In this document: one piece after another, positions 1 through 45,895 of the stretch
Layout: the number at the start of each line of letters is the position of its first letter
Numbering within the stretch: position 1 is the first letter of the stretch
DNA from: Clostridia bacterium
Lineage (GTDB): Bacteria; CBDUZB01; JAGLHV01
DNA: 49,327 nt
Direction of reading: 5' to 3'
Assembly: GCA_030637025.1 (NCBI GenBank)
Contig: DAOVVV010000020.1
Span: 1-49,327 of the forward strand
Notes under the pieces: generated by a model
What the model saw: the letters and a program-made list of their open reading frames with translations, nothing else
The model's database searches: none
What the model was told of the DNA's origin: nothing
Position numbers and translations under genes: made by a program

Positions 1-430
1 CCCTCTAAATCTTGTTTGATTATTGGTTCTTTTGGTGAAAAGGAAGTTGTTCGAATAACGGAATTTAGAGATTATATTGAATTAATTATTACAGGAAAAA
101 AAGAAAATGGTGATACTATTAGTTTTATTGCCAATATTACACCGGAATACCTCAATGAAAAAGTATTAGTTAATATTTTCGAGAAAATGAAGGAATTAGG
201 GGGATTATCGGACTTAAAAGTAGCAATAGCCGGTAAAAGAAACAGTATTAAAAAAATTAAAAAGATTTGGGAAACAAATAATTTTCCGGTTCCTGATAAT
301 AAGATTTTATTGACACATTCAACTACAAACGGAGAAGCTGTACTTTCATCTCTTATAATTATAGTTGTCAAAGACGATATTAGATTAATGCACAAAAAGG
401 GACGACATTTAGATTGGGATAGTCTTATAA
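1..430 (+). other. Degenerate copy of the C-terminal CheD/YfiH-like deamidase domain (giant protein)
   Basis: EVVRITEFRDYIELIITGKK..FIANITPEY..GLSDLKVAIAG aligns with EIVSVPELYDCTGIAIAGRK..IAAHIRPGY..GLSDLKLALVG at ~27010-27195. Cys is replaced by Tyr and His by Asn. Confidence 0.6.
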
Positions 431-3400
431 TAAAAGGAGTTCAGGATAGCCGGCAAGAAATAACGGAGAGAATAACAACAAAGAAAATACAAGATGTGAA
501 CGAATTGGATGAAACCAAAAATAAATTGTCAATCTTTTTGGAAAACATAGATAATCTTAATGAAAATCAAAGATTAATCTTGGAAGCAGCTATTAGTAAT
601 GGTTTTGTTTGTTTTAATACGGATAAACTTAGACTTAATCAAAGAATACTATCTATGGATATATCTACATTCAATAGGGCTATAAAAAAGCTTGAAAACT
701 TAGAATTGCTTACAATTCCGACCAAAGGACGTTATATTTTAAGCAATAAATTAATAAATGATTTGCGGGAATCTCAAATATTCAATGATGAAGTGTACAA
801 AAAATGGATGGATATTGTAAAGATGGAAGAGGTATTTAACGAATTTGTCTATCCTGAAGGGATAGGGGATAGAAGTAGTCGTAAGGAAGGGAATGTATTA
901 ACAAGTAAAGACAGGGAGGCAGTACTTGCAATTTTAAAAAGTTTTAAAAAGGATACTATTTATAACGTTTTTGGTGCAGAGGAATTAAGAAAAAAATACA
1001 GTTTTTTAAAAGATGAGTATACTAAAGACCGCTTTCAACATTTATTAATCATTCTGGAAAAAGCTGGAGTCTTTGATTGTCCTGTTTGGGGACGCTATTT
1101 GTTTAGTAAAGATTTTGTAGAGAAGCAGAAAGAAAAAGGACTTATAGATGATGTTTTTTATAATAAATATATGGTAATTTTAAAACGAGAGGAATTACTT
1201 AATCAATTTTATTATGAAAACAATATTGGGGAGAGAACCAAGGGAGAAAAATTAGCTAACCAGGATAGAGAATTTGCGATAACCCTTGTAAATATAGTAA
1301 ATGAATTAGAAGGACCTTTTAATTCAGAAAAATTGGTGGGTTTATTTATTGAAAAAGGTAAGAAATATGCTGATAAGAAAAGTATTAATATATTTCTGAG
1401 TAATTTGGTAAATGCAGGTCTTTTAGACAGGCCTGTGTCTAATAGGTATTTATTTAGCAAAAAATTTATTGGTCTGCTATTTAAGGAAGATTTTATTGAT
1501 AGAGATACAAGGAATAAGTGGAATAATTTGTTGGAGAGAGAAAAGAAATATAAAAGCTTAGGAAAAAACAGAAAAGATGGGTGGACGGGTTCAACATTAA
1601 GAGTTCTTGATGTTATCATTGATAAGGATTTAAAGCGGTTTACAAAGGAAGATATTTCGGAAGAAATTTCTGATATGCCGGTGAGGACAGTAAAGAAATC
1701 TTTAGGTATACTGAGCGGAATGGAAATTATTGAGTATCAAAAGGAGGGGGAGTACAGGGGGTATTATGCTGTTAGTCACATAATAGCAAATGTTAAAGAA
1801 ATGCCGATTAAACCTATAGAAATTATTGCAATGATTGAAAAAGAGGCTGATTTGGAAGAGGATTTTAAGGCAGCAAAAGACCTGTATGAGAGGGCCATCG
1901 AGGGGTATTCCCAGATTAAAGAAGACGGGTTAGCTATGGAATCAATCAAACGCTGTTCGAAAAAGATCGAAGATAAAGGGGTTGCTATTATTAAAAACGA
2001 ATTACCTGAAAATTCCACAGCCCTTATTTTATTCTTTATAATTCAGGGATTAAGCCGGGAGGATATCATAAACGATGGAAGGATTAGTCAAATTTCTTTG
2101 AGAAAAAATACCAAAATGCTTATTAACGATGAGTGGATAAAATATGAACAAAGTAAAAGAGTTCTGCCAACGAATAAAGCACTAGAGCTTATTTATGGTT
2201 CGGAGTTTATTTCAATTGTTCTTGAAAAATCACCTTATTCAGCTTTAGAAATTGAAAGAGCAAAAGAAATACTTAAAGAAAAAGATTATAAAATCAACGA
2301 AGATAATATTAAAAGGGCAATAATATTGTTTAGAGAAAATATCGATATTAAACCGATTTATATGAAAATTTCGGCAAAAACATTGCAGGAAAGGATAAAA
2401 GCAATAAATGCAGGAGAAGAGAAAGGAATAGATATTCCTAATTATTATATTACTTATCCCGCAGAAAATATATCCTTCATGATAGATAGTTATATAAAAA
2501 ATAATAAAGCTGCTAGTTTGCGTATTATCTACGAATCTCTTCCTTTAATAAAATCACCAAAAAATTTATTAAACTTATTAAGTGATTTTGTAAATTTACC
2601 GACTAGAGAGAAAAAAAGTATGATGGCTAAGAATAAATTATTAAATGCGTTTAAATTCTTTCCGGATGAAATAAAAAATAATTTTAAAAAAATAGAAACG
2701 GATGAGTATAGTAATAAAATAGTTGTAGAAGGATTTATTGAAACTATTTATAAATCTCCGAAACATTTTAAAATACTTATAATTTTAGATAAAGTAAAAC
2801 CTGTTTTAAAAGAAGAAGCAATCGAACAACTTAACGAAAAATCTGAAATTATAAAGGAAGTGTTTCTTGTAAATTTAGGAGAGAGGATATCTATAGAAGA
2901 TGCTTTATCCGGATTAGAAAGCAATCTATTCGATGCCTTTATTAAAAAGGATGATGGTGAAATTATATTAGTAACTGTTGCTGAAGACAGGTTAACAGAA
3001 GCTGTAAGTGATGAAAAAGGTGAAGTAGCATTATTATCTTATGCCGGTATATTGATATTGGTGTTAAGTATAGGGGTTTTATCTGTATTATCTCCTTTGT
3101 GGATTATGGGGATTTTGTTAATCGGTATTATTATGGGAGGTATGGCTATTTATCATAGTCCACCGTGGGGTAAATCAGGCAGAAAAAGAGCCTTTCCCAT
3201 TATTCAAAATCTGTTAATAACCCTTCTTGTATTAGCCCTGCTTCCCCGGAAAAAAATAAGCCCGCAGGTTTTAGACGATATTACTGCTTATAGTTCCCTT
3301 TTAGAAATATCAAATGTTGACTGGGATGTGCTTATAGGAACAGATAGATTTAAAGATGTTGTGCCGAGAGTATTATGTAGTTTAAGTTCGGATGTTCCGG

Positions 3401-21400: not shown

Positions 21401-24400
21401 GATGGTATCTTCAATTTTACAAGGATGAAAATAAATCGGAAGAAGCAAAAAATTTGGAGAATCGTTTGCATAAATTTAAACTTGAATTAGGGGAATTATG
21501 GATAACGGGAATAGAATTTGGTGATAAGATCTCTGAGAGGTGGACTGCATTAAATATTTATGATTTAGAGGAAGATATGGTTTTAGTTGCAGGTTCGGAG
21601 AAAACGATAGAAGAAAGTAAACAGAGTTTTATAAATTATTTTCTTAAATTTGGGAATACAGAGAATTTCAATAAATGGAGGGAGCATTTTAAGAAACTAA
21701 GGGAAGATTCTATTAGAAAACACCTGGAGTCACTGAAAGCATATCGACCTTATAATGAAAGAGTAGTTATAGAGCAATTAATTGTTAAAATTAGAGCTTT
21801 TAGTTTTTTAGATTATTTTTTAAAAAATATGGGAGTCGAGATTGTCAATGAAGAAATAAGAACTAAATTAAGAGAAATAGAAAAGCAATTAGGAGAAAAA
21901 AAATTTGGAAGTAAATGCCCCGAAGAAATAGTAATTTATATTTTACAAACTTATTATAAAGAAAAAAATATTGATGAAATATTAAGAATGATTATAAAAA
22001 AGGAAAAAGAATTTGGTGAGAGGGAAGAAGAAATAAAGGGGCTGTTTTTAAAAAATAATTTGGAAGAATTGACTAAAAAATATCGGAAATTATCAGGGAC
22101 ATTTAAAAGACCTCAAGAAGAGATAGAAGGGAAAATAAATAACAATATTTTTGGTATAGAAGCGGCAGAAATTTCTATCTCTAACTTTTTGGTTGCATAT
22201 AATGAAATAATAGAAACGAATCTGGATGTTAAAAAAGGGAGAGTTTTTAATTCCGAATTTTTATCGGATAAAAAAATAATGGAAGCCACGGCTTATGTTT
22301 TTGATTTAGGAGGAACATTGGCTTTTGAGAAAGAGGATGTTCCTTCCGATAAGTTAATAGAGTTATTAGCGGAATTATTAAACCAAGGGAAGAATGTAGC
22401 CATTATTACCTCGAAGCGAGAGATAGTGTTTAAAGAATGGATAGAAAATAAACTATTGCCGCTTGTGACTAAAGATAAAAGATCTTTATTTAGGGTGTAT
22501 GGTGATAGATTGACAAAGACATATCAGGCCGGTGAAGATGGAAAATTGGAAGTTATTTCAACTATACCCTTTCCTTATCCTGATAATATGAATAGAATAG
22601 CAAGTGAAGCACGAGAAGTTGTTAAAAAGATGGAGGGTGGTTATTCAATTGAGGTAAAGAAAAAAGATACATATATAGAGGTATCTGCCAATAGTGAGTT
22701 GCCAGATCATATAAGAAAAGAACTTGACCAAAAACTTGTCTCGGCTCTCAAAAAAGCCGATTTGTTGCTTCCTGAAATAATGATTGATTCGAGAAGTAAA
22801 AAGGGATTCTATATCCTAAGCAAAAGAGCTATTAAAGGAGAGTTGATAAAAAAATATTTGACCGAATTCAATGTGGATTCTGATAAAACATTTTATATTG
22901 AAGATGAGGTTGACTTGTCAGTTGCGGAAACAGGTGTGAATTATCTTAATGTTGGCATTGTAGAAAAGAATATTCCTGATAATGTTTATAATCTCCAGGG
23001 AGGGCCGAAATCGGTAGAAGTTTTTTTAAATATAATTATAGAGCAATTGAAACGTACTGGAGAAAAGAAGACAGACAAAAAGGCGAAATCCGGTATTATA
23101 AACAATAAGCAATTGCAAACAGAAGTAATAGAAATTTTACAGAATTGGAAGCCGAATATTAAAATTGATGGGGTAGAGATAAAAAAGATTGAAGGACATA
23201 ATATAGAAGAAAAAGAATTGCTTGAAATATTTATAGGGGAAGATAAAGGATCTGAAATGTGGGGAGCTTTTAAAGATGATATGATTTTGGGTTTTATTAC
23301 CGTGAATATTAAAGAAGGTAAAATTTTTTATATTCGCACGGAAGAAAATTATCGAGATAAAGGAATAGCCCGGGCACTGCTTCGTGAGATTTTATTGGAA
23401 TTTGCAAAGAAAGGCATAAAAAAGGTAACAAGTACATCAATACTTGATGATTCATTTCAGGATTGGTATCATTTATTGAAAACAGACGAATTTATTAAAA
23501 AAGAATGGGAATTTTATAAAGTCGATTTTGAGCTTACTCCAGAGAATGCGGCTATTATTTCCGGTTTGGTGAAACCAGACACAGAAAAAAAATATTCTCT
23601 ATCGGAATCTGAAGGCGCTAATGTGAATACATTACAACATTTAAGGATGGTAGGTGTTGCAGGTTTGGCTTTTATTATAACTTTGTTTGTATTGCAAATT
23701 ATGGGTATAGAAACCGGAATAACAGGTGTGGAAGGGATATTTGCAGGGATGATACCTTTTGTTATAATACCTGTGGGTATGATGGTTAATAGAAATGAAC
23801 AACAAAAAGAAAAAAACCTGTCCGAAATGCCTCGAAAAAGCAAATCAGATTTGGGCAAAGCCATAGAAGATATGCATAAGCGAAATTTTTTGGATATGAA
23901 GTTGGTTAAAAAAATAAAAAAGAATCCTAACCAAATGGTTTCTTTTATGGAACTAAAAATTCCTGCTGTCGTTGCTTTTGTCTTGCCGAATATTATCGGT
24001 GCAAATAGAAAATACGATGTAGGAATCTTGCTGTCGAATAATGAATGGGCAAGAGAATTATTTTGCGGTAACGAAGCGATAGAGGCTGCAAAAATGGATT
24101 TGAAACGATCGATTAGAACTATAAAAAAGGCGAAAGGGAATGTGGTGAAGATGCGTGGGCTATCGCATTTGGGCAATTATATCCAGAAAAAGGAAGCAGA
24201 AGAAATTTCTAAAGTAATTAAATTGCCTGGAAAAGGTAACATAATTGTCGAACTTGGTGCAGCTCAAGGGTGGCTAAGTTATCAGTTTAGTAGAAGGCAT
24301 AAGAATAACACATACATTGCAATCGAAAAAGATGAAGAAACTGTGAGCTTGACAAATGATATGAGGAAACAAAATAACATTGATTACAGGCTGGGTGATG

Positions 24401-27400
24401 CGACAAACTTAGAATTTAATGATAAGAGTATAGATATATTAATGGATAAACAGTTAATAGATAGGGGGTTATTGAATAGGAGCGGCATATTTAGTTTTAC
24501 AGTATTCAATCATTTACAAGAAGCCTCAAGGATACTTAAAAAAGATGGCCTGTATTATAAAATTGTTGATCCTGAAGACGGTGAATTATTTAAAAAATGT
24601 ATGCCGGCATTTGGATTTGAATTGTTAGAGGAAAAAAAAGTAAAGGGTATATTAATTACAGAATCTCAGAAGCAAGAAGGGCCCAATGCTTATTTTAGTG
24701 TCCTTAAAATGAAAAAAGTAAGTACACCTTATATAATAACTTTTGCTAAAAACACATTATTTGCTATTGCGGTTACCGGGGGTAAGGGCAATGCGTGTGA
24801 ACAAAAGGGAAAAGAATTAACTATTGCAGAGGTTCCGTTAGAAAAAGTACCATATGTATATATAAAAACCATTGAAAATTCTTTAAATATAGTAAAGAAT
24901 ATAATTATTAGTGAATATAAAAAAAAGGGAGAATTTAAAGAGATAATGCCGGCGTTTTCTAAATATGGCATAGATTGGAAAGAACTAAAAGACGAATTGG
25001 ATTCTGTATCAAAGTCCGGTTCTATTATTAGCAAAATTTTTAAGAAAAAAGATAAAAAGAATCAAAATGAAATTGTATGGAAATACTTAGCTCCGATAGC
25101 TGTGTATTTATTTAAGGAAGCTTTTGACGAAGACGATATAAATAATCTGCCTGAAGAAGCTTTACAATATATATATGATCAATTTAATGAGAAAACAATA
25201 AGAACGATGGATAAAAAATCCGATGTCCGCCACTCTTCTTTTGATGAAGTAAAAAAAGGAAAAATTTTTGCTCAAGGCCGTAAATTTGTTATTAGTAAAA
25301 TTTCTGAATTGCTGAAAAAAGGAAAATATTTCCCAAAAGATAAAATTTCCTCTAAAGACCAAATTTTGCTTGCAAATGTAATTGATGAATTGGTTAAAGA
25401 AGGATTGGTAGAGGCAAACACCAAAGAAGTTATACGCTTTTATGATACTCCCGGATTTATTGGGGATAATGAAAAAGAGGGCATAGGCCTTGGTTTGGAA
25501 ATTTTCAAATTGGAGAATAAAAGAGAAAAAGAAGCTGTGCTTAAAGCCACTGTTTTTGAAGAAATACTTCATGACAGCTATAAAATCGAAGAATTATCAG
25601 CTATAGAGAATAATCTGGCTGAAGAGATTATTGTTGCCGGTATTCTTATTAAACAATTCATTGAAGATGAAAACAAGGATGTCGGAGAGAGGATACTTGA
25701 CCTGAAAGGTTATCTTGATGGCCTGGATAAATTAGGCAAGGATAAAAATCGAATAGAAGCATTTAAAAAATTAACAGAAAAAATAAAAGAAATCCCGGAT
25801 GAGAAAGAACGATTTTCTCTTATCCTGGATTTTTTAATTAAATGGGATAAAAATTTTACGCAATTGCGAAATATAAACCACAGTGACAAAAATAAAATTA
25901 TTGTCATTGTGGGTAATAATGTATATGTAAAGAGACTTTCTTTAAAGCAAAAACTGGGCGAAATGATAGAAATTTACACAGAAATCTCTCATTCTACCGG
26001 TTTTAAAGAAAAAGGAAATTTTGTTCCAACGGATAGTTCAATAATAGTTCATTTATTATCCGAATTAGGAAAGATGGGATTTAAGTTTAAACCGGGTGCT
26101 AAATTCGTAGATTTGGGTTCCGGTGATGGAAGAGTATTATTTACAGCTTGTTTGTTTGGTTTTGATGCAACCGGTATTGAATATGATTCGGAATTGGTTG
26201 AGATTAATAAAAAAATTGAAAAAATACTTATCGAGCGGAAAATTATTTCACCTTTGAACAAACCAAGAATTATTCAGGGAGATTTATTAAATGAGAATTT
26301 ATCCGATTATGATGTATTATATTATTTTGCGGGAGGAACCGAGGACGTTCAATCGCTTAAAAACAAACTTATTGATGAAGTAAAACCAGGGGCAATGATT
26401 ATAACATTTGTGGAATCTGAAAGAGAAAATCTGTCTCCCCATTTTAAATTAATTGCTTCTTTTGCACCTATGATTAAGGTGTATATCAGACCCGAGGCCA
26501 GGAGTAAAAACGGAATAACAGGCAAGGAAGGGATATTTGCGGCAGCGGCGGTGCTTTTTGCCATGTTCCCGGCAGGGATGATGGTAAATCAAAAGTCTGA
26601 TGAAGAAAGAAAAAATGGTAATTTAGCTAAAAAAGATATTGGTCCTTTCAATGCGTTGGAAGTTTTACAAGAAAAGGCAGAGGATATGGATGGGTCGTTT
26701 TATAAAAATAAAAAGGGAATGTGGAATAATTTAATTTTAATATCTATGGTGGCACTCATTGGTTGTATATTTCTAATAGGTGCTTATTTTTTTGAAATAA
26801 TGCATATAATATTTATCTCGCTTTTTGTGTTTTTTATATTAAAGAGTAAATGGCAAGCAAGAAAAAAAATTTCTATTTTAAGATATTTGAATATTAAGGC
26901 TAACGGCAAGTTAGTTCCTGCGGGTAATTTAAAAGTTATATCATTGAAAGGAAATAAGGTTTACAAAATAATTAAATCTCAAACACTGATAGTATCTCTT
27001 AATAAGGATGAAATCGTTTCTGTTCCGGAGCTATATGATTGTACAGGTATAGCAATAGCGGGTAGAAAAGGAGGAAAAATTGTTAACATCGCTGCACATA
27101 TTAGGCCTGGATATGTTGAATACGTATGGCCTAATATTATTGAAAGTATACGCAATATCGGCCTATCTGATTTGAAATTAGCTTTGGTGGGGGAACAGAA
27201 TGATATTCGAAAAATAGAGCAAAGTTTACCGCAAAATACCAAAATAGTATTAAAGCATATAAGAAAAAATAATGATATTAAAAGTCCGGTTACTTTAATA
27301 ATCAAAAAAAATCGTATTGAAATTTTAAATGAAATTAATATTGTTATTGACAAAACAAAATTTTATTCAAGAAACATAAAAGAGTTAATCGGAAATTATG

Positions 27401-27513
27401 TTTTAAAAGATAGGAAAAACAAATCTTTAGTAATTAATAATTTGTTTTTAGGGATAGCAGGTTTGGTTTTAATGATTTTTTTAGTTGTTTTAAAAATCAT
27501 GGGAAAATTTTAA
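1..27513 (+). CDS. Giant multidomain membrane-anchored protein (>9165 aa, probably 5'-truncated by the window), putative polyprotein
   Basis: Single ORF 16..27513. Bases 1-15 (CCC TCT AAA TCT TGT) are in frame with no stop, and the first residues fall mid-domain (homologous to the domain at ~27000), so TTG at 16 is unlikely to be the real start. About a dozen hydrophobic segments or hairpins separate soluble domains. Confidence 0.93.
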   Translation, partial: PSKSCLIIGSFGEKEVVRITEFRDYIELIITGKKENGDTISFIANITPEYLNEKVLVNIFEKMKELGGLSDLKVAIAGKRNSIKKIKKIWETNNFPVPDNKILLTHSTTNGEAVLSSLIIIVVKDDIRLMHKKGRHLDWDSLIIKGVQDSRQEITERITTKKIQDVNELDETKNKLSIFLENIDNLNENQRLILEAAISNGFVCFNTDKLRLNQRILSMDISTFNRAIKKLENLELLTIPTKGRYILSNKLINDLRESQIFNDEVYKKWMDIVKMEEVFNEFVYPEGIGDRSSRKEGNVLTSKDREAVLAILKSFKKDTIYNVFGAEELRKKYSFLKDEYTKDRFQHLLIILEKAGVFDCPVWGRYLFSKDFVEKQKEKGLIDDVFYNKYMVILKREELLNQFYYENNIGERTKGEKLANQDREFAITLVNIVNELEGPFNSEKLVGLFIEKGKKYADKKSINIFLSNLVNAGLLDRPVSNRYLFSKKFIGLLFKEDFIDRDTRNKWNNLLEREKKYKSLGKNRKDGWTGSTLRVLDVIIDKDLKRFTKEDISEEISDMPVRTVKKSLGILSGMEIIEYQKEGEYRGYYAVSHIIANVKEMPIKPIEIIAMIEKEADLEEDFKAAKDLYERAIEGYSQIKEDGLAMESIKRCSKKIEDKGVAIIKNELPENSTALILFFIIQGLSREDIINDGRISQISLRKNTKMLINDEWIKYEQSKRVLPTNKALELIYGSEFISIVLEKSPYSALEIERAKEILKEKDYKINEDNIKRAIILFRENIDIKPIYMKISAKTLQERIKAINAGEEKGIDIPNYYITYPAENISFMIDSYIKNNKAASLRIIYESLPLIKSPKNLLNLLSDFVNLPTREKKSMMAKNKLLNAFKFFPDEIKNNFKKIETDEYSNKIVVEGFIETIYKSPKHFKILIILDKVKPVLKEEAIEQLNEKSEIIKEVFLVNLGERISIEDALSGLESNLFDAFIKKDDGEIILVTVAEDRLTEAVSDEKGEVALLSYAGILILVLSIGVLSVLSPLWIMGILLIGIIMGGMAIYHSPPWGKSGRKRAFPIIQNLLITLLVLALLPRKKISPQVLDDITAYSSLLEISNVDWDVLIGTDRFKDVVPRVLCSLSSDVPAIKFIAGQKIEELMDDEKQRSLVLSIAGDLDLAGDQGLPNIIEIIKTLDNLKKEMEKSAKDYLIARRDVKIIPESGMGLLLAADVFIQKEISSIAEAESRQIPVKYVENEGKRKKIAIKSFVKIIGKLIISSIGFIILINLFSRFIEGWLYIVAVILIGIIGGKFVAKWAFNRPLMEWRQIVNALKPKDLEFLLGDKNAKFYLKIESFGQDLITKTEVLAEKLKKLGVDVEILRYDDKKYLSFSEYCNKIIVVELFRRKKSISDGYKFKKSDIAVRYFKGEIPEKMPMEIIQCYLDEFEQIVGNLVEYKKEVVEIENILSGEFNDEELIVCTDKILREIFDYIRNPEEDIIPISESKKKLVQVLVKNCNYNEKDARRLRDALVSSKTYLQILKSNNEEKIDMITGNLLDILAYSKNTLDNIGVKKDLLFNVERLFFSAIDIELLKREGYDNKEIRSNFFSGNSTGNFVYLPRRDGKYINFTFFIPKNWRKIFNLSDGSRKVVQEIYNGEKLYIPITEDSWRELGREIDHVNSLFEKYLRARGTVSGEILAISKRLRIQPQYSDDLIDRICAMRVVKKALGRFPGVKLSNKFMERFIEEIRVPSFPTDYRELEVLFLYFVKEYKGWEEKGLEPFEIESMLLEISVDEAKMLENTGMNMEDIKVLVMKDKAKIRKEIENKSISSSIEKSEKSTVKKLFSDIFIVLFWYFVHLYAIFYIASFLNISINNQTIISALILACITMYVDSIISKKLNSGETRQDRKLKKNIKALIENKKNQIYLTTDFPGDSNDVKELINKLNEVNKKNVEFLAPMEKISEVIGDIEIINLVPELDMTYFDDGVHSDFINQDEIGDSEKMKKEVIIVSMETFREIVEEIEKDYESGKAKNPVEKVLSMLLAIIILGTLMSHVGLRFIGKAAAEPDVLNTAFTSGVSISGIGLLPFIIAGLLVSMIFLKWMIKAMGKRAEPMMSNLIERLIKRSPLLVLPILMTMPSNVILEQIYSKRPEVKSEGVAKILKYFLKDKTENEGWVSFADISKETGLSADTFYNRFLRDLGPYIEADNSGDRVLYKVKESYRETLEKALDEFEESISYSKGKFTWEEVKKKLDKLSISSPEFAKVLNEIAERKREFIIEELVKKLGVSKKFVQNALNVLAKGEIILYRGVPYGRRYYKMNPIKSENLEESNLPNLIIDKITKSPFQFVLGEKKVEEFSSETVKENIKNFNLENPAQFVFLMRIVDFEGEKFFVKNLGIEDFTYQLISDTINDLLNLKILVIDDYKNNEKILMFNPDVEEIKEEFKERLDEYSGLAVPSDEILENLENLSITSKLKANILAATAYSDRRHDISLGNINLWFGKKDKAFLKKLNDKGIIVLVDSIGKNKIYILNPNKELDDFSGKILKFLSKQKIKPDIDKKVVYSKSQKYFELYKYGEINDFVEDSSFPGYIWKRMNNRVLGILILADMLKKPVEKATRDDFKNNGFKGLIKEHYNNSTSTAVDEFYALCKKFNVAVAEDSYDRENYQKLRETLDNMSDEYGSVSRNYVYAEEIENKAYLEKNPRKAIKLYERAIEKYSQFGEGEPGYELAQKAIERCLKKIEDRMIAVGLPYYIAEKIEKEADLEQDFMVARDLYEAAIKEYSRIKKGKPGYELAQKAVDRCLKKIKDRGIAADLPYYIAGKIEKGADLEEDFMVARDLYKAAIKEYSRIKKGEPDYELAQEAIESCLKKIEDRMIAADLPYYIAGEIEKGADLEEDFMVARDLYKAAIKEYSRIKKGEPDYKLAQEAVESCFKKIEDRGIAIVKKEASSLILSLISQGLQREDIINKKHKGIMITKYDWNWLTKELLKYGFIKYEQNRKFVLTEKAYNLLNISITEKLPYTEAEIESAKKILKENEFEIDRMSIEKTVILLRENIDIKPEYIKFSLETLQEKIKALKIGREKGIDVPDYVLKYPAENIATVVDTFIKNDETIAFSTINTSLTTAKSTKNLLKLIDDFVNSVGKGKKNIIGNKLLTAFRLFPDKMKENFKEIETNKSINKSVTIKFIESLYKYPKCFEILIILDEIKPILKEKAIEQLNEKHEIIKELFVINSGKWISIEDSLYGIEKDRFDLFIRNDNGEIILLEKKPDNKKAELKQKQGAQAQIMPLSILVVFPLLIFIAVVVVAFITPVAATGLEYSSLINSVIFNSLPAGFIFTVLGVTGIIWFYMSKKINKEDKQFDGIEKVNELLQKRAGYDQDELKTIGIDPELFKIIYDYNFNQRFDVQFAGFEEIKKVGGKTWFINRENKTILLNTNYVMESESAFYNHLRKLLLPWVLAHINGHLIKFSSYFGFLSKPIAYLSWIISPVSKLIKKIINWYRLKAFPIKVEIGFGKKGIFLLENADRNKRERWKGFEMGEDGINNVREKIKKGGIKNLEVVKVKRPETGNIMGGTEYIELSKLNLISALKDKLKPNSIAGFYFNYPVPFINDRIIDTKVAEELYKYLVVGGEVVVVTEKESYIKEIREAFSRIPGFDNYFIENGYQEGSPHRYFKDSKGWEYSPKPESEYWESWGDNRFGNVYYLRFTKRDIPDFKKTKLIAQFNNEEEVFERVKESDENTLWIVSDFNGLRVKNIRREIDNKGLKNIVVYTGAPWSVIDEIKLNDISEIYLDNTTSIFEDEYRLETRTYLIKPALAQTISDLLITGGKIIVNALDKEYSDQIEKIFSEIEDLKIETVVEKEGKYFLSYIKIKEESKKVKTPKFISGLASLFMLLGIILPPEKKQVEKIKLDTYLKNASSDKLEMLELIARIAGGYKRGMLYRNSLYSKASDFTRAITLLDELILLEVLIVPHGSKMQYKFNPEMKEYFADKVNQLFFQDRVDKLIRETDIAEPESVFRAVMAVMEKVENVKKVYKALNYIFENYKFKKGEGFKTILINRKTGKELSSAQIHSLISPEKNNYPFNKLSENSPLRQLLMHILNKTGILGDLGGLPVRMSALPESGDYTISAISPDGERGVDEWVKNNFRVEGIYEPGRNVFDKLVLKRVGNEEGTTVYSHKSLDFEIVVLKGNPQKVEEIKENYNLAKTEITSLIPAFKLIENPKIMIEKVNGQGYVEYDFAVVREKTKTCRNINEANFKELVELIFSMWKKRIFFPGKIFIQNFGINKEGSIVLKDLGVVKPDSIYKDNFILYLRGLDVINNFNPLNAFSRDKKLVKENILSWIKCYLRLFIYNSFFVKIWVKIEIENVKEYLDDFLKKHSIKKDEKGRLGNLLFIPASLAFLISIAAFVMGFSTPTAVTGLLFGEVFEIFGLLTMITLFAGKVEFIPGDLTKTNLSDDKVTVLLENKYNLDKNQKLILKAVISNGFVRFNSDILRLNQRISSMPDSTMNMKIRQLKEIGLIMIPTKDRYILSRSLIDDLIEFRLISDELYKEWIDVVNIEEVFNKFVYPEGIRDKSNRIEGDPLTGQDRDLMLLILEPVKKNGVFGPEELRNKYSFLKKKYDIYQFQHIISLLTESNVLYSSVRARYLLSSDFVEALNEKGLIDKEIYDKHIIILKQEKLFNQFSYENDLGQKTKGNRLADEDRKFTISLMEVISEIEGPFDSEKLVALFIKKGSKYADKKPLNILLSNLVNAGILDRPVSNRYLFSRKFINSLFEANFIDEFIKDKWDNLLVRENEYKRLGKNREEGWTSSVLKVLDVIVNKNLEQFKLSDISKELPDMPMRTLRKSLGVLGGMKIIKYELNVGYSVNEIIENIQNRVIVVEMENKADLEQDFREGVEKNEKKGIELVRKKVPGYDESKVLFYLLEGLTQEEIKLKGFSSAGLIRINKVLTEAGWLRRGEKRMLKPTDAAKELVGQSSEDIIVGSEIEQILINIGLVTTNEDNIKKVEILLENNLPVRAAIIENKSLKTLQERIEVIKRIRLKNGKTANYQTLIYYPAKKIELIEEIIRRADKKKIDVSFKEIKDLILVRGEKGFLEDLNKFVNSTAINGKKKPVDSEIKAERERIGNELLKAALIWPKKFCELFEEIEKKKLVEEKTEEFVKILYKSPKCFEILLILEKVMPVSKEEAIIKLKEKGEAIKEVFLVNSGKGISFEDALPGIENDLFDAFIRNDNGEIVLLGKVGNKRKKDDKRFISALGYNLKSLMEATLEITDAVLNPQNMMNMFLGEKKEGEGKREYEFDVSDISKDRSDKIIAKIPKEFLAQTGTKEVQVKGTTREDLVSTEKMWAMAGLAKHPDKKDTLVLYIHQEYLKALEALTDKKKEEMFAALARHEVWEYQLVNMYGIPQEIAHLIVISNKDINEWNKALKQAGLEEYEADKVEQIIKNIIQANENLQDLIKEIKADKKNQQELEKITRTVLKNRTDANKKRNGTTDRLKRLEGILRNEAKEQLPKDKEELLNMISDLRRAQYNYNLPFGVKRIINISKNRKMLVQKLEDGELDDLLDYFKEKEKAYKKLILKEKQKLEVFVKALEEGKEYLTPNELADKLERSEKNISAALSFLIDKGWIKRGGKHKFDANPRYKLLHLNATKFFINTDTELEEIKLKIKKRKYYWENLTVHEKAFLVFLKEITELQDNKELSPKYIAEKIDMEASNLPNKMNPFLEKQLIGRKKHGVYFLPEEIQDLIFEYEKEIIENYKKLSKEDKGKFKKIIVKTKNKLVKAKGFISLLDGRVDREMQKIIQQGLILMPKNGSYLMPACLLSYIEKEELMLNGVNGEDTISDLQREIELVVLDLDGTIAENHKPLSKAVINILENLLKKGKHVAIITEDLDDYELETRVISLISSKLKHQLSIFTSGGAKGFGFDSNGNKYYYEEYNRYGLIDDKFRQKILDLLDNNFSGQYQVDKKSKYVSPDCRIDLSNISDRDEKIRKIEALLSAANISAKVYKVGKNSMKIILQHKDDAARYILEKKRIDESKVLIIGDRALRNLVDRKLLSSFPRAVSINVGSYSNTIHKFNPNIIQLTDEKISGTKRVLSGLAEKGYVDLTGVNSIKTVNLKNRHKGEKGINNLKGVTIFSAAIFAYVIFGSFVGLIGTAAAEQGVVSTAAVSGLSLYGMGLPVIFMGLAGAGLGLIVVPEIFKIGEILKKYRNKDMKEEEIEGRRPFSKETIVSKELKTISKEGIKWASIENLCQHFVEHLGDWRNNELVIDLSHHLVIEAIRKYESIANKFFISKETEYYRAKEGRYLAINPLLNAAMIFVDNGNSCYEIITIYPINFEKDAVRIKKKSLKCEDAFKNNFLSNKVSFVKITNNLKYPDYINRVVFNLLIRKSWELFLKVEKNHQLRKTNKKAKKLEERFNLYKKFTKDFVRLVRSEDVLNVLESKGFFLVENDYPIIWGSHFIQLKTEGRNKYVLFLEKILRKRGLIAHAESLRLLRKSGEKKAKSDVINDKQAEVTIDSLVFGVAGIMLAIGLFVLKMMGIDTGITGVEEIFAVAAVPFGILAVGMIVNEKSYTNLERVIDVDSLEGPVYKGAYLKKEDIFNGTKTVYYFYKGREGRNEGIKPEVIFWMSKSDNSLNIVNIEKEKVMWGFSKKFIKDMFVIYPDIEIIRWGPIISCNGFVSALSLGLFDYEDLDGFKGDVLSFLILETKIKDKDIYIKDFLDSHNKVRLDLAVVDEVFKSKNVNKINAVIMKYREKLEKNKKKETIGEIYPEGSVYAPRFKFSDYEKGPDADKFEDTKDKGLTKVIEILQNWNPNVKIDGVEIKKIEGIHKEIELFKTILEEDPEYEVWAAFENNVVIGFIIANIKKGEIFHIRVNYKNKGIDRALLRKILLKFAKQGIKNVTSTPMLDDSLKDWHHLLKTEEFIKKEGEHYKINFELTLENVAIISGYAKADTEKKSSLSESEGANVNTLGYLSMVGVAGLAFIITLFVLQMMGIEIGITGMEGIFAAAAVPFVILAVGMATRKSVNKSKTMSEVLKDIELPYRALTAQEKEMVVEEIRQWLEEINMKEILNEYGAKDYFFGLIGSMSNNEISIINTLDVGKSSDVDIKLIVKVPQGKKISIYEYLANKLGADFHYFDGSSNKPVEGWYLQFYKDENKSEEAKNLENRLHKFKLELGELWITGIEFGDKISERWTALNIYDLEEDMVLVAGSEKTIEESKQSFINYFLKFGNTENFNKWREHFKKLREDSIRKHLESLKAYRPYNERVVIEQLIVKIRAFSFLDYFLKNMGVEIVNEEIRTKLREIEKQLGEKKFGSKCPEEIVIYILQTYYKEKNIDEILRMIIKKEKEFGEREEEIKGLFLKNNLEELTKKYRKLSGTFKRPQEEIEGKINNNIFGIEAAEISISNFLVAYNEIIETNLDVKKGRVFNSEFLSDKKIMEATAYVFDLGGTLAFEKEDVPSDKLIELLAELLNQGKNVAIITSKREIVFKEWIENKLLPLVTKDKRSLFRVYGDRLTKTYQAGEDGKLEVISTIPFPYPDNMNRIASEAREVVKKMEGGYSIEVKKKDTYIEVSANSELPDHIRKELDQKLVSALKKADLLLPEIMIDSRSKKGFYILSKRAIKGELIKKYLTEFNVDSDKTFYIEDEVDLSVAETGVNYLNVGIVEKNIPDNVYNLQGGPKSVEVFLNIIIEQLKRTGEKKTDKKAKSGIINNKQLQTEVIEILQNWKPNIKIDGVEIKKIEGHNIEEKELLEIFIGEDKGSEMWGAFKDDMILGFITVNIKEGKIFYIRTEENYRDKGIARALLREILLEFAKKGIKKVTSTSILDDSFQDWYHLLKTDEFIKKEWEFYKVDFELTPENAAIISGLVKPDTEKKYSLSESEGANVNTLQHLRMVGVAGLAFIITLFVLQIMGIETGITGVEGIFAGMIPFVIIPVGMMVNRNEQQKEKNLSEMPRKSKSDLGKAIEDMHKRNFLDMKLVKKIKKNPNQMVSFMELKIPAVVAFVLPNIIGANRKYDVGILLSNNEWARELFCGNEAIEAAKMDLKRSIRTIKKAKGNVVKMRGLSHLGNYIQKKEAEEISKVIKLPGKGNIIVELGAAQGWLSYQFSRRHKNNTYIAIEKDEETVSLTNDMRKQNNIDYRLGDATNLEFNDKSIDILMDKQLIDRGLLNRSGIFSFTVFNHLQEASRILKKDGLYYKIVDPEDGELFKKCMPAFGFELLEEKKVKGILITESQKQEGPNAYFSVLKMKKVSTPYIITFAKNTLFAIAVTGGKGNACEQKGKELTIAEVPLEKVPYVYIKTIENSLNIVKNIIISEYKKKGEFKEIMPAFSKYGIDWKELKDELDSVSKSGSIISKIFKKKDKKNQNEIVWKYLAPIAVYLFKEAFDEDDINNLPEEALQYIYDQFNEKTIRTMDKKSDVRHSSFDEVKKGKIFAQGRKFVISKISELLKKGKYFPKDKISSKDQILLANVIDELVKEGLVEANTKEVIRFYDTPGFIGDNEKEGIGLGLEIFKLENKREKEAVLKATVFEEILHDSYKIEELSAIENNLAEEIIVAGILIKQFIEDENKDVGERILDLKGYLDGLDKLGKDKNRIEAFKKLTEKIKEIPDEKERFSLILDFLIKWDKNFTQLRNINHSDKNKIIVIVGNNVYVKRLSLKQKLGEMIEIYTEISHSTGFKEKGNFVPTDSSIIVHLLSELGKMGFKFKPGAKFVDLGSGDGRVLFTACLFGFDATGIEYDSELVEINKKIEKILIERKIISPLNKPRIIQGDLLNENLSDYDVLYYFAGGTEDVQSLKNKLIDEVKPGAMIITFVESERENLSPHFKLIASFAPMIKVYIRPEARSKNGITGKEGIFAAAAVLFAMFPAGMMVNQKSDEERKNGNLAKKDIGPFNALEVLQEKAEDMDGSFYKNKKGMWNNLILISMVALIGCIFLIGAYFFEIMHIIFISLFVFFILKSKWQARKKISILRYLNIKANGKLVPAGNLKVISLKGNKVYKIIKSQTLIVSLNKDEIVSVPELYDCTGIAIAGRKGGKIVNIAAHIRPGYVEYVWPNIIESIRNIGLSDLKLALVGEQNDIRKIEQSLPQNTKIVLKHIRKNNDIKSPVTLIIKKNRIEILNEINIVIDKTKFYSRNIKELIGNYVLKDRKNKSLVINNLFLGIAGLVLMIFLVVLKIMGKF
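535..2975 (+). repeat. Internal block A copy 1: tandem winged-HTH array + helical repeat + 'D.GEIIL' end module
   Basis: Clear DNA and protein similarity to 13340-15675 (e.g. LVNAG.LDRPVSNRYLFS in both). The second half is also similar to ~8800-9750. Confidence 0.9.
8005..8780 (+). repeat. 195-bp (65-aa) tandem helical repeat, three near-identical copies plus one diverged upstream copy (TPR/MIT-like)
   Basis: CCTTATTATATCGCT recurs at 8203, 8398 and 8593 (period 195). Unit is LPYYIA.KIEK.ADLE.DFMVARDLY.AAIKEYSRIKKG.P.Y.LAQ.A...C.KKI.DR. Dispersed copies lie at ~1830-1990 and ~14600 (partial). Confidence 0.95.
10471..11570 (+). other. TrmB-like (tRNA m7G46) SAM methyltransferase domain followed by a degenerate second copy
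   Basis: IKVEIGFGKKG (motif I), FYFNYPVPF (cf. NFPDPW), LVVGGEVVVVTEKESY (cf. L..GG.L...TD...Y). The second copy has ISEIYLDN..LITGGKIIVNALDKEY but no motif I. Confidence 0.7.
12440..12900 (+). other. Protein-kinase-like domain, probably a pseudokinase
   Basis: RVGNEEGTTVY..VVLK..VVREK..IFFPGKIFIQNFGINKEGSIVLKDLG follows the order Gly-loop, Lys, catalytic loop, DFG-like. The catalytic Asp is missing. Confidence 0.55.
13340..15675 (+). repeat. Internal block A copy 2 (winged-HTH array module)
   Basis: Paralogous to 535-2975. Confidence 0.9.
15850..16260 (+). other. Zincin-like metallopeptidase module with HExxE..H
   Basis: LVLYIH..ALARHEVWE (16132-16146)..EIAH (His at 16189). Confidence 0.5.
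17500..18270 (+). other. HAD-superfamily (IIB/PMM-like) phosphatase domain, motifs largely intact
   Basis: VVLDLDGT (DxDGT at 17518), VAIIT, K in QHKDDA, IIGD..D. Confidence 0.85.
18690..18970 (+). other. Putative RNase toxin-like domain (HFxxH, colicin D/BECR-like pattern)
   Basis: W.S.ENL.QHFVEH..DW...Y...A.KF followed by short beta strands ending in IITIYP. This resembles the LxxHFxKH..Y..A..F pattern of polymorphic-toxin RNases. Confidence 0.45.
20365..21025 (+). repeat. GNAT acetyltransferase domain + TM cassette, copy 1
   Basis: VIGFI...IFHIRV..YKNKGIDRALL (motif A). High DNA similarity to 23120-23790. Confidence 0.85.
21100..21700 (+). other. Pol-beta-type minimal nucleotidyltransferase domain
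   Basis: GLIGS (GS at 21214-21219)...SSDVDIKLIV (DxD at 21274-21282). Confidence 0.7.
22290..23040 (+). other. Second HAD-IIB domain, partly degenerate
   Basis: YVFDLGGT (second Asp replaced by Gly), VAIITS, K in IKG, YIEDE..D. Confidence 0.75.
23120..23790 (+). repeat. GNAT domain + TM cassette, copy 2
   Basis: YRDKGIARALL. Paralogous to 20365-21025. Confidence 0.85.
24235..24720 (+). other. Class I SAM-dependent methyltransferase domain
   Basis: IVELGAAQG, YIAIEKD, GDATNLEFNDKSIDI, RILKKDG. Confidence 0.85.
26010..26490 (+). other. DOT1-like/protein-lysine class I methyltransferase domain
   Basis: FVPT..KFVDLGSGDGRV..ATGIEYD..IQGDL..YDVLYYF..VKPGA. Confidence 0.8.
26980..27340 (+). other. 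CheD/YfiH/CNF1-fold Cys-His deamidase-like domain
   Basis: LYDCTGIAI (Cys at 27040)...AAHI (His at 27097), with spacing typical of this dyad. Confidence 0.55.
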
Positions 27514-28152: not shown

Positions 28153-28683
28153 ATGTTAAGGAACAGACTGGTTGTGCTGGGGTTTTTAGCTGAAGGGCCT
28201 ATGCACGGCTATCAAATTGACCGGCAAATAAAGCAACGCTCGATGGGCATGATTGCTCATCTATCTACCGCTTCTATTTATAATGTTCTCAATAGATTGG
28301 CAAAAAAAGGTTGTATTTCGGTAAGAAAAGAAAAAATCGGCAAAATGCCGGAGCGTAATGCTTACCGGATTACGGCAAAAGGGAGGAAGGAATTAACTGT
28401 TTTAATTCAAGATGGTTTATCAAAACAGAGGAAACACGCTGCTGTTGCTTTTATCCTCTCAGTAGTTTTTATTACCAATATTTCTCCCAGGGAAGCGTTG
28501 GTATCTTTGGAAAAAAGAAAGGCACAAATAGAGTTTATGCTAAGCAAAGTTAAAGAAAAACAGCAAATTTCCGGGGCATTTAACAGGTTATATGTTATTG
28601 ATATTTCCTTAAAGCATTTGAAAATAGAATGGGAAGGGACTAAATCTTTAATTAAGAAAATTAAAACTATTAAAAAATGGTAA
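28153..28683 (+). CDS. PadR family transcriptional regulator
   Basis: LG.L..GPMHGY.I...SIY..L.RL...G.I.......P.R..Y.IT..G; RBS GAGGA upstream. Confidence 0.93.
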   Translation: MLRNRLVVLGFLAEGPMHGYQIDRQIKQRSMGMIAHLSTASIYNVLNRLAKKGCISVRKEKIGKMPERNAYRITAKGRKELTVLIQDGLSKQRKHAAVAFILSVVFITNISPREALVSLEKRKAQIEFMLSKVKEKQQISGAFNRLYVIDISLKHLKIEWEGTKSLIKKIKTIKKW

Positions 28684-28697
28684 ACAGGAGAACAATT

Positions 28698-45894: not shown

Positions 45895-45895
45895 A

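Follow-up and report, generated by a model that had tools for sequence, protein, structure and literature searches.

A truncated giant gene from a cold-seep bacterium with predicted enzyme modules set between membrane hairpins

In uncultured bacteria, few features are understood as poorly as giant genes encoding many transmembrane (TM) segments, and whether their products act inside or outside the cell is disputed in two preprints (West-Roberts 2023, bioRxiv 10.1101/2023.11.21.568195; Nielsen & Lui 2026, bioRxiv 10.64898/2026.06.07.730766). We address this question for the giant open reading frame (ORF) that begins a stretch of 49,327 nucleotides, here called the window, which is the whole of contig C43 (DAOVVV010000020.1) in the 77-contig, 2.36-Mb genome bin of a bacterium deposited as Clostridia (GCA_030637025.1, here G000). 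A first reading, made from the sequence only, described the product as an arsenal of enzymes and DNA-binding domains and proposed a multi-effector gene for manipulating a host or prey cell, as suspected for Omnitrophota-like episymbionts. Are these modules sent into another cell, or are they held at the membrane of the cell that makes them?

Nucleotides 1..27513 of the forward strand form a single frame of 9,170 codons with no stops, which is truncated at the first base of the contig and ends with the stop codon at 27511-27513; no continuation of the frame was found downstream of this stop. In this region of 31% G+C, 9,170 codons should contain about 859 stops by base composition, where none is seen, and the other five frames over nucleotides 1-27513 hold 263-1114 stops each. 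The ORF is certainly the 3' part (27.5 kb) of a giant gene that continues upstream of the contig, since its first module, a CheD-like unit, lacks about 40 N-terminal residues that its paralogues have. In G003, a sister species of the same genus, a contig of 35,308 nt consists of a single 11,769-codon frame that is open at either end, and three blocks are collinear between the two frames with 46-84% identity (Table 1). These observations show that the giant frame truly codes for protein and has been conserved in a sister species.

Four cold seep metagenome runs of one study contain 96-99% of the sampled words of nucleotides 1-10000; three of them are possible sources of the assembly, and the fourth, not so flagged, belongs to the same study. 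Per-run contigs of the four runs fill 30 of 30 bins of nucleotides 1-20000 at even depth, in pieces of up to 7.3 kb at ≥95% likeness. Among the listed pieces, breaks occur near internal repeats (nt 8188-8689 and 15996-16244), and none spans the whole stretch of nucleotides 1-20000. No sign was found of the assembly chimera that the sequence-only reading had considered, and the frame is probably continuous as a single gene. No RNA dataset was present among the sequencing runs listed as containing the sequence, and neither Rfam families nor tRNAs were found in the window.

The localization of the product was approached through its hydrophobic segments, taken from a Kyte-Doolittle scan, and through counts of lysine and arginine (K/R) around them. 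About 26 hydrophobic segments were found in the 9,170 residues, comprising 11 pairs, 3 unpaired segments and 1 C-terminal segment, and together they split the chain into soluble stretches whose lengths range from about 40 to 1,700 residues. In the connecting loops of the 11 hairpins only 3 of 117 residues are K/R (2.6%), while in the hairpin flanks, counted as 15 residues on each outer side, K/R make up 76 of 330 (23%), the protein average being 15.9%. According to the positive-inside rule, the K/R-rich side of a membrane segment is cytoplasmic. Because the loops are K/R-poor and the flanks K/R-rich, the rule would place the loops in the periplasm and the large modules in the cytoplasm, and because the helices are paired, every module would stay on one side. 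The charge bias therein suggests that the large modules probably face the producer's own cytoplasm.

Hairpins 8, 9 and 10 and the half hairpin are 41-61% identical to each other at the protein level and up to 91% identical over 54 nt, and a cassette formed by a GNAT domain plus a hairpin is duplicated, with 65% identity between copies. The gene is, therefore, built of cassettes, each a soluble module followed by a TM hairpin, which have been multiplied by internal duplication. Hairpins 4 (6052-6273) and 7 (18355-18558) are also related, with the runs AAAEP and AAAEQ, respectively, immediately after the first helix; by eye, these runs look like a site for signal peptidase. Two hairpins of similar kind are present in a second giant ORF of this genome, on contig C25.

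Enzyme modules were searched with Pfam, scanning the protein halves at E ≤ 0.01 and 19 segments at E ≤ 0.5 and applying curated cut-offs. These scans show a cargo of predicted cofactor-dependent enzymes: three S-adenosylmethionine (SAM) methyltransferase-like domains, two GNATs and one or two HADs (Table 1). Of the three kinds of methyltransferase reported by the sequence-only reading, two exceed their Pfam cut-offs and the third gives matches below cut-off only, among them, in PDB sequences, the RNA methyltransferase 5BXY (E 0.0067); the Methyltransf_4 domain scored 34.4 bits with NCBIfam TrmB, under the model cut-off of 112.65. Both GNATs proposed in that reading are above cut-off. One of its two HADs is as well and retains a DLDGT motif, with NCBIfam HAD-IIB matching residues 5836-6049 at E 4.3e-6, under that model's cut-off; the second, with DLGGT, is below cut-off. 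Other NCBIfam matches were all under cut-off, and searches of PDB sequences with the two protein halves returned 0 and 4 weak matches.

Three further enzyme assignments from the same reading stand as leads. The kinase-like region has named kinase neighbours among ESM Atlas clusters, and no Pfam family matched either the window copy or the G003 copy. The putative nucleotidyltransferase shows a GS-x18-DVD motif, and neither this segment nor its relative P0002, a 706-residue protein that is the sole relative found for residues 7011-7420 (53% identical), matched a Pfam family. The RNase-like assignment falls on an orphan segment whose language-model recognition score lies under the level reached by most real proteins, and for its first 167 residues (6209-6375) no homologue was detected among proteins of near length. 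Pfam searches of P0002, of the proteins P0003 and P0004, of the G003 kinase-like ortholog and of two window segments gave no informative family. The zincin-like domain found no support, as the HExxH motif occurs 0 times in 9,170 residues and no peptidase family appeared in the Pfam scans. The same scans found no Ig, cadherin, RTX, NRPS or PKS families, nor, on the 19 segments at E ≤ 0.5, any glycosyl transferase/hydrolase, peptidase or NUDIX family, so that the view of the cargo as cofactor-dependent enzymes rather than adhesin repeats is supported.

The deamidase-like fold was the most successful of the earlier guesses. An AlphaFold (AF2) model of residues 8965-9140, built from 8 sequences, reached a mean predicted local distance difference test score (pLDDT) of 68.6 and a predicted template modelling score (pTM) of 0.69, with a core at 80-90. 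With VIA-align, its top match was CheD (2f9z_C; Z 12.2, root-mean-square deviation 2.8 Å, 126/154 residues), ahead of NTAN1 (Z 9.3), YlmD/YfiH (8.5-8.1), BLF1 (7.5) and CNF1 (about 6.9). Foldseek returned 12 chains at E 7.9e-6 to 1e-3, including NTAN1 (7.9e-6) and CheD (4e-5). No sequence-level link accompanies this likeness: Pfam at E ≤ 0.5 gave no CheD match to these modules, a profile of five copies retrieved only 3 matches among 1.84 billion representative proteins, none of them CheD, and the profile gave nothing meaningful, and no CheD chain, against PDB sequences. The deamidase-like module is thus confirmed at fold level in the model. The resemblance to CheD (2F9Z chain C) may extend to a Cys and a His 21 residues apart in the C-terminal copy, although here the module is embedded in a giant membrane protein, with no chemotaxis context. 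Both residues are kept in that copy and in P0003, and among the window, G003 and C17 copies in the C-terminal one only. The others carry Tyr or Phe for Cys and, in some, Asn for His (window copy 1, both copies in G003, in which the Cys is replaced, and contig C17); in window copy 1, Tyr and Asn occupy the positions of the Cys and His of copy 2.

The many winged helix-turn-helix (HTH) domains of the sequence-only reading fared less evenly. One HTH_24 match exceeds its cut-off, and the rest are sub-threshold MarR/HTH matches, including all Pfam matches to the array at 553..1800. The model of this array is of low confidence save for residues ~530-590, where the elements follow the order H-E-H-H-E-E, and one MarR chain aligned to it at Z 6.2. 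Module X copy 1 is 52% identical to residues 2865-3249 and 35% to residues 4864-5225; in its model, pLDDT is 82-91 over residues ~605-735, and TrmBL2, ScpB, ArsR and MarR align at Z 6.5-7.7. These parts recur as a supermodule made up of one CheD-like unit, some four winged-helix-like units, helices of MIT/TPR type, a further winged helix with ARM-like helices (module X) and one hairpin, which occupies residues 1-1083, partially 2651-3333 and 4433-5225, and is found again on contig C17 of the same genome. The supermodule model (residues 165-1005) is poor (pLDDT 59.2, pTM 0.28), its confident part being residues ~605-735. Foldseek found no match to it at E ≤ 0.001, the best being RPC62, a protein composed of tandem winged helices, at E 1.5e-3, above the usual bar. 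ArsR, MarR, TrmBL2 and ScpB aligned with the supermodule model at Z 6.2-7.7, hints only, as VIA-align calls Z 6-8 common. The presence of many winged helices is, therefore, plausible and has been shown for only a few units, and DNA binding is only predicted. In the region of tandem helical repeats, an Imm6 match (32.6 bits) was considered as an immunity domain and rejected, given that it is a sum of weak matches over the repeats in which no single stretch passes.

Table 1. Features of the giant ORF (nucleotides and residues of the window frame; bit scores are followed by the Pfam cut-off where one applies)
Feature	Nucleotides	Residues	Strand	Evidence or remark
CheD-like module copy 1, cut by contig edge	1..450		+	33.6% identical to residues 8992-9111
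Array of ~4 winged-helix-like units, ~120 residues each	553..1800		+	Internal repeat, residues 204-397 ~ 323-514
Module X copy 1	1813..2973		+	MIT/TPR-like helices, winged helix, then ARM/HEAT-like helices
Hydrophobic cluster 1	3016..3249		+	48-residue stretch plus third segment; number of spans uncertain
TM hairpin 2	3757..3912		+	Hydrophobicity scan
TM hairpin 3	5482..5640		+	Hydrophobicity scan
TM hairpin 4	6052..6273		+	AAAEP in loop; 48% identical to hairpin 7
Weak HTH/MarR-like region	6274..7950		+	Sub-cut-off matches only: MarR_2 (E 0.0013), several HTH families
Tandem 65-residue helical repeats	7951..8790		+	195-nt unit, 3.5 copies, 90% matches; TPR_14, Sel1
Module X copy 2	8593..9747		+	Self-comparison
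TM hairpin 5	9793..9999		+	Hydrophobicity scan
Methyltransf_4 (TrmB-family) SAM methyltransferase	10468..10950	3490-3650	+	2.8e-18, 66.4 bits (24)
Unpaired weak hydrophobic segment	11590..11655		+	K/R flanking both sides
Kinase-like region, lead only	12118..13116	4040-4372	+	Nearest named ESM Atlas clusters OspG kinase, WaaY, Pkinase, 0.90-0.91
TM hairpin 6	13117..13272		+	Hydrophobicity scan
Second winged-helix-like array and module X copy 3	13297..15675		+	Self-comparison
Winged HTH (HTH_24/MarR/DnaD_N)	16744..16845	5582-5615	+	HTH_24 1.1e-5, 25.3 bits (21.9)
HAD-IIB phosphatase-like	17506..18147		+	DLDGT motif; Hydrolase_3 at residues 5837-5874, 1.9e-7, 31.5 bits (20.9)
TM hairpin 7	18355..18558		+	Hydrophobicity scan
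Orphan segment, earlier called RNase-like	18559..19494		+	PBECR3/EndoU clusters only, 0.79-0.80
TM hairpin 8	19495..19668		+	Loop GIDTGITGVE
GNAT copy 1 (Acetyltransf_1)	20464..20664	6822-6888	+	3.5e-4, 21.3 bits (20.7)
TM hairpin 9	20860..21030		+	Hydrophobicity scan, self-comparison
GS-x18-DVD motif, possible Pol-beta-type nucleotidyltransferase	21214..21282	7072-7094	+	Motif only
Second HAD-like stretch, weak	22300..22443	7434-7481	+	DLGGT; Trehalose_PPase E 0.017, HAD_2 E 0.024, below cut-off
GNAT copy 2 (Acetyltransf_1)	23206..23430	7736-7810	+	1.2e-11, 45.3 bits and 5.6e-7, 30.3 bits (20.7)
TM hairpin 10	23638..23790		+	Hydrophobicity scan, self-comparison
Class I SAM methyltransferase (Methyltransf_31/11/25)	24232..24558	8078-8186	+	3.6e-11, 43.4 bits (27)
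Third methyltransferase-like domain, weak	26071..26406	8691-8802	+	DOT1 E 0.0016, Methyltransf_23 E 0.0036, below cut-off
TM hairpin 11, preceded by a half hairpin limited to loop and second helix	26530..26853		+	
CheD-like module copy 2	26893..27420		+	Cys and His 21 residues apart
C-terminal TM segment (first helix only) and stop codon	27421..27513		+	
Collinear block 1		1-2112		G003 residues 6875-8964
Collinear block 2		3334-4386		G003 residues 9471-10724
Collinear block 3		4374-4891		G003 residues 11217-11769

Taken with the topology, this composition leads us to favour, at a probability of roughly 0.55, a multi-pass inner-membrane protein that acts as a membrane-tethered platform on the cytoplasmic side. 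Each hairpin would return the chain to its original side, leaving short loops in the periplasm, and the large modules would stay at the producer's cytoplasmic face with SAM, acetyl-CoA and nucleotides at hand. Such a platform would gather, at the inner membrane, modifying enzymes together with winged-helix arrays binding nucleic acids or proteins. The cytoplasmic-face reading agrees with the chemistry, as it is in the cytoplasm that SAM, acetyl-CoA and nucleotides are found.

Several points weigh against this platform. Its topology comes from a Kyte-Doolittle scan and charge counts, which are crude compared with a trained predictor or an experiment. The sequence-only reading had proposed examining whether all cargo lies on one side; by charge counts the 11 hairpins would keep the modules cytoplasmic, but the unpaired segments (residues 1064-1082, 3866-3884 and 8845-8863) have K/R on both sides and could flip the chain. 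If all three span the membrane, residues 1084-3863, including the Methyltransf_4 domain, would lie opposite the GNATs, the HAD and the other methyltransferases. In addition, the N-terminus is missing, and contig C25 carries a candidate 5' fragment whose start resembles a signal peptide. Most of the giant protein has no family assignment, and most CheD-like copies lack the Cys. Finally, as far as their accessible text goes, West-Roberts 2023 and Nielsen & Lui 2026 favour extracellular roles for many giant proteins.

As for the organism, the sequence-only reading left the taxon open, and was right to do so. The canonical SecY of the genome is 96% identical to that of one metagenome-assembled genome (MAG), 73-74% identical to those of three MAGs (two labelled Clostridia and one unlabelled) and 63-71% identical to those of MAGs with an Elusimicrobia or Elusimicrobiota label; an Omnitrophota label is absent from all 80 best SecY loci. 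A FastTree phylogeny built on 81 SecY rows places the genome in a starred set with 11 Elusimicrobiota-labelled and 3 unlabelled rows. By this single marker, SecY alone, and a quick method, the organism appears to lie outside Omnitrophota and to group with Elusimicrobiota-labelled MAGs, a provisional placement. The likeness to Omnitrophota that had been suggested consequently applies to the architecture and not to the organism. The phylum-level group of this genome comprises 4 genomes only, all of one genus, which may reflect a group that is very small or has been coded oddly.

Within that group, the distribution of the cargo is narrow. The supermodule is present in 2 of the 4 genomes of the genus, at 8 places in G000 and 3 in G003, and none was found in G001 (97% complete) or G002 (89% complete). 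A methyltransferase segment had a strong match in 1 of 40 other genomes, and residues 7011-7879 matched G003 only, over the GNAT part. Residues 1-1400 gave 68 pattern matches and no relatives among genome contigs, a search from which own or near records were possibly excluded; metagenome contigs searched with residues 6187-7386 and with alignment A3 gave no relatives either. For residues 5241-9170, no homologue was detected among proteins of 5,043-16,048 residues, and the searches for homologous proteins being limited by words and length, an empty result does not equal absence. The 706-residue P0002 fragment aside, the cargo was found by sequence similarity only in G000 and one sister species, G003.

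Other contigs of the genome bear on the missing upstream part. On contig C25, an ORF at 3513..27062 (+) runs for 7,850 codons and is open at its 3' end. It begins with a hydrophobic, signal-peptide-like segment (residues 23-41) and contains two SecA_DEAD domains, HATPase_c, a weak SecA wing/scaffold match and a full embedded SecY (1.8e-44), whose hydrophobic segments suit a channel. The embedded SecY scores 160 bits against 397 bits for the canonical SecY on contig C75, and the genome also has a canonical SecA. The order SecY then SecA_DEAD is found in G001 too, within a 2,429-codon open frame, and the five nearest named relatives have one SecY each. This arrangement recalls accessory Sec systems (SecA2/SecY2), in which a second, divergent SecY and SecA-like domains also accompany the canonical pair; here, in contrast, the extra SecY- and SecA-like domains are fused in one giant ORF instead of being separate genes.

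The C25 ORF may be the missing 5' part of the window gene. In favour of this, both ORFs are oriented in a compatible way, some of their hairpin types correspond at 47-49% identity, and the single G003 frame has blocks homologous to both. Counting against the link, G003 and C25 share a single 200-residue block, the G+C content is 0.364 in C25 and 0.31 in the window ORF, at least one further fragment, C17, exists, and no exact overlap was found between the end of C25 and the start of C43. We regard as improbable, though worth stating, that the two ORFs are one gene of at least 17,000 codons encoding a self-inserting membrane polyprotein of a non-Omnitrophota lineage rather than a weapon. Its fused SecY-like channel and two SecA-like motors would thread the protein's own two dozen hairpins, producing a cytoplasmic-face cortex of winged-helix arrays, CheD-fold modules and RNA- or protein-modifying enzymes; this cortex, perhaps cut at the hairpin loops, would organize nucleic acids or signalling at the membrane.

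Contig C17 (3.6 kb, nt 1-3609) is wholly one open frame of 1,202 codons with a full copy of the supermodule, which is 80% identical to G003 residues 6890-7498, compared with 58-69% for the window's own copy. Because the tail of C17 matches another part of the G003 frame, modules appear to be shuffled between species. The ends of contigs C46 and C1, which match a G003 block, contain short ORFs only. Upstream of the part that matches the window, the G003 frame (L007:10202-19999) shows a class I methyltransferase at 7.6e-9 along with an mTERF-like domain at 1.1e-7, while no Pfam family was detected in its first 3,400 residues.

The closest known counterparts are the giant multi-enzyme, multi-TM proteins of Omnitrophota, namely the Archaeovorin type of West-Roberts 2023 and the class 1 / Module 1 proteins of Nielsen & Lui 2026. 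The accessible text of West-Roberts 2023 (10.1101/2023.11.21.568195) describes giant genes of Omnitrophota that combine many TM helices with divergent SecA_DEAD domains and carry methyltransferases, GNATs and HADs among others, raises proteolytic processing of the products, and reports that genes of ≥10,000 residues are frequent in Elusimicrobiota; it predicts most annotated domains to be extracellular, with a warning that the predictions are unreliable. Its sole mention of SecY is that SecYEG is not syntenic with the giant genes, and a figure legend names PDB 5BXY for an Archaeovorin domain. In the corresponding part of Nielsen & Lui 2026 (10.64898/2026.06.07.730766), a 'multi-enzyme' class is distinguished among Omnitrophota proteins of ≥10,000 residues, and a Pfam co-occurrence module (Module 1) comprises the PF08241 methyltransferase, PF02518 HATPase, PF00583 GNAT and HAD. 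There, 46% of topologies are TM-only, which is read as anchoring at the cytoplasmic face, and a 147,155-residue multi-enzyme protein is read as exposed on the outer face. Since both preprints report such a composition in the text accessible, the cargo described here belongs to a class already described. Two further papers, also seen in part, find Elusimicrobiota enriched in huge proteins, which they leave uncharacterized.

The window ORF shares with the Omnitrophota proteins a very long single ORF, many TM helices, varied enzymes rather than one repeat, the PF08241-type methyltransferase, PF00583 GNAT and HAD families (PF08282 here), repeats diverged at the nucleotide level and a weak PDB 5BXY-like domain. 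It differs in that its host is not Omnitrophota by SecY and that no sequence relative was found outside one sister species. Two SecA_DEAD domains and HATPase PF02518 lie on the 3'-open C25 ORF, a putative part of the same gene, and not in the window. The window also gave no glycosyl hydrolase/transferase, peptidase or NUDIX domain of the Archaeovorin category and no dockerin domain. Neither CheD-fold modules nor long arrays of winged-helix-like units are mentioned in the accessible text of the Omnitrophota preprints, where the words 'winged' and 'hairpin' do not occur, although supplementary domain tables may hold cases; SecY is likewise not mentioned in that of Nielsen & Lui 2026, and an embedded SecY in neither. 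Literature searches combining SecY/SecA with giant protein, Elusimicrobi with giant protein and cold seep with giant gene found nothing closer. Because the gene is truncated, its assembled 9,170 residues fall under the thresholds of 10,000 (Nielsen & Lui) and 30,000 residues (West-Roberts); its G003 relative has at least 11,769, with both ends open. The feature is a giant multi-enzyme membrane protein of the Omnitrophota style that occurs in another lineage, with a lineage-restricted cargo, with CheD-fold and winged-helix-like modules, and perhaps with a SecY/SecA unit of its own.

The genes that follow the giant ORF, an unassigned ORF among them, were also scanned. Directly 3' of it (28153-33343) are a PadR regulator, an outer-membrane efflux protein (OEP) and an AcrB-type resistance-nodulation-division (RND) pump, and no membrane-fusion protein was recognized among the downstream ORFs scanned. 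Two neighbouring genes at 35342-37332 may be a defence pair: one matches Schlafen AlbA_2 at 1e-12, the other a Cthe_2314-like HEPN domain at 2.9e-5, slightly under the cut-off. Further on, at 45872-48220, lies a 782-residue ankyrin-repeat protein made up nearly entirely of repeats (Ank_2 6.2e-162, 13 stretches), and upstream of it two large ORFs of 823 and 980 residues have no Pfam family. No adjacent immunity gene or dedicated secretion genes were found among the downstream genes scanned, and Pfam and NCBIfam scans of the ORF revealed no secretion, translocation, trafficking (RTX, Rhs, LXG) or autoprocessing domains.

The original proposal, in which the modules would be set free and sent into a host or prey cell to manipulate it, seems unlikely. 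It draws on toxin- or effector-type folds and leads (CNF1 at Z ~6.9, BLF1 at Z 7.5, the OspG cluster at 0.91 and PBECR/EndoU at 0.79-0.80), on the downstream ankyrin-repeat and Schlafen/HEPN genes, and on the SecA- and SecY-like domains of the other truncated giant ORF, which could serve export; moreover, giant genes of Omnitrophota have been tied to predatory or episymbiotic life (10.1101/2023.11.21.568195, in its accessible text). Yet these scans revealed neither a secretion signal, a translocation domain or an RTX repeat nor an autoprocessing protease or an immunity gene nearby, the neighbouring export genes (PadR, OEP and AcrB) are an RND efflux set and not a protein secretion system, and membrane hairpins with a charge bias that indicates the cytoplasmic face stand on both sides of the modules. 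The effector view of the cargo is further weakened because its toxin-like folds are either ordinary cytoplasmic folds, with the housekeeping CheD matching best, ahead of CNF1, and most CheD-like copies lacking the Cys, or unconfirmed leads, as are the kinase and the RNase; the zincin has no support. Like MARTX-type and polymorphic toxins, the window ORF places unrelated enzyme modules on one polypeptide, with some overlap of folds (deamidase, and possibly kinase and RNase), whereas here there are membrane hairpins between modules and no RTX or trafficking repeats, autoprocessing protease, secretion gene or immunity gene.

We give a slimmer chance to the view, put forward for Omnitrophota giant proteins that have a signal peptide plus TM segments, that the modules face outward, to the periplasm or the cell surface, and act on envelope or extracellular substrates. 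The signal-peptide-like start of the C25 ORF would agree with it, as would the outer-face reading of the 147,155-residue protein by Nielsen & Lui and the extracellular predictions of West-Roberts, flagged as unreliable in the accessible text of that preprint. However, K/R are nearly absent from the loops and abundant in the flanks, and the link between the C25 ORF and the window ORF is a putative one. For SAM- and acetyl-CoA-dependent enzymes and winged-helix domains, no cofactor or ligand supply is known outside the cytoplasm, which also counts against an outward orientation.

Slimmer again is the prospect that the product is a polyprotein that is cleaved, at places such as the hairpin loops, to give a dozen separate membrane-anchored proteins, so that one ORF replaces an operon. 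The AAAEP and AAAEQ runs after the first helix would be candidate cleavage sites, the cassettes are modular and shuffled between species, and processing has been raised in the accessible text of West-Roberts 2023; but the resemblance to signal-peptidase sites was judged by eye and concerns 2 of 11 loops, and no peptidase domain was found in the window. That the ORF is an artefact, either an assembly chimera of repeats or a decaying pseudogene, is very improbable: a contig that begins inside the gene, related modules on the short contig C17, internal repeats, breaks of the listed contig pieces near two of these and an unflagged run that comes from the same study leave some room for it, but 27.5 kb of DNA with 31% G+C contains no stop, three blocks are collinear in the open frame of a sister species, four per-run assemblies reproduce the sequence at even depth, and the recognizable domains keep their motifs.

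The membrane-tethered cytoplasmic platform thus remains the reading that we prefer. The observations of the sequence-only reading are partly confirmed, and its fold guesses proved better than chance, that of the deamidase fold especially. Its interpretation is only partly supported, as an effector gene aimed at host or prey finds no support in hairpin-separated modules, a cytoplasmic-face charge bias and the lack, in the scans made, of a delivery or processing domain or an immunity gene.

The debate over where giant multi-TM proteins work may find a useful case here, since the cytoplasmic-face reading is made testable by regular hairpins with a strong charge bias and by cofactor-dependent enzymes on several segments. 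The case of CheD calls for caution in assigning function from fold class, given that a toxin-like deamidase fold is best matched by a housekeeping protein. The presence of the cargo in only 2 of the 4 species of the genus points to fast turnover. Lastly, the architecture with SecA-like domains, plus a SecY embedded on a companion fragment, exists outside Omnitrophota, in what appears to be an Elusimicrobiota-related lineage of cold seeps.

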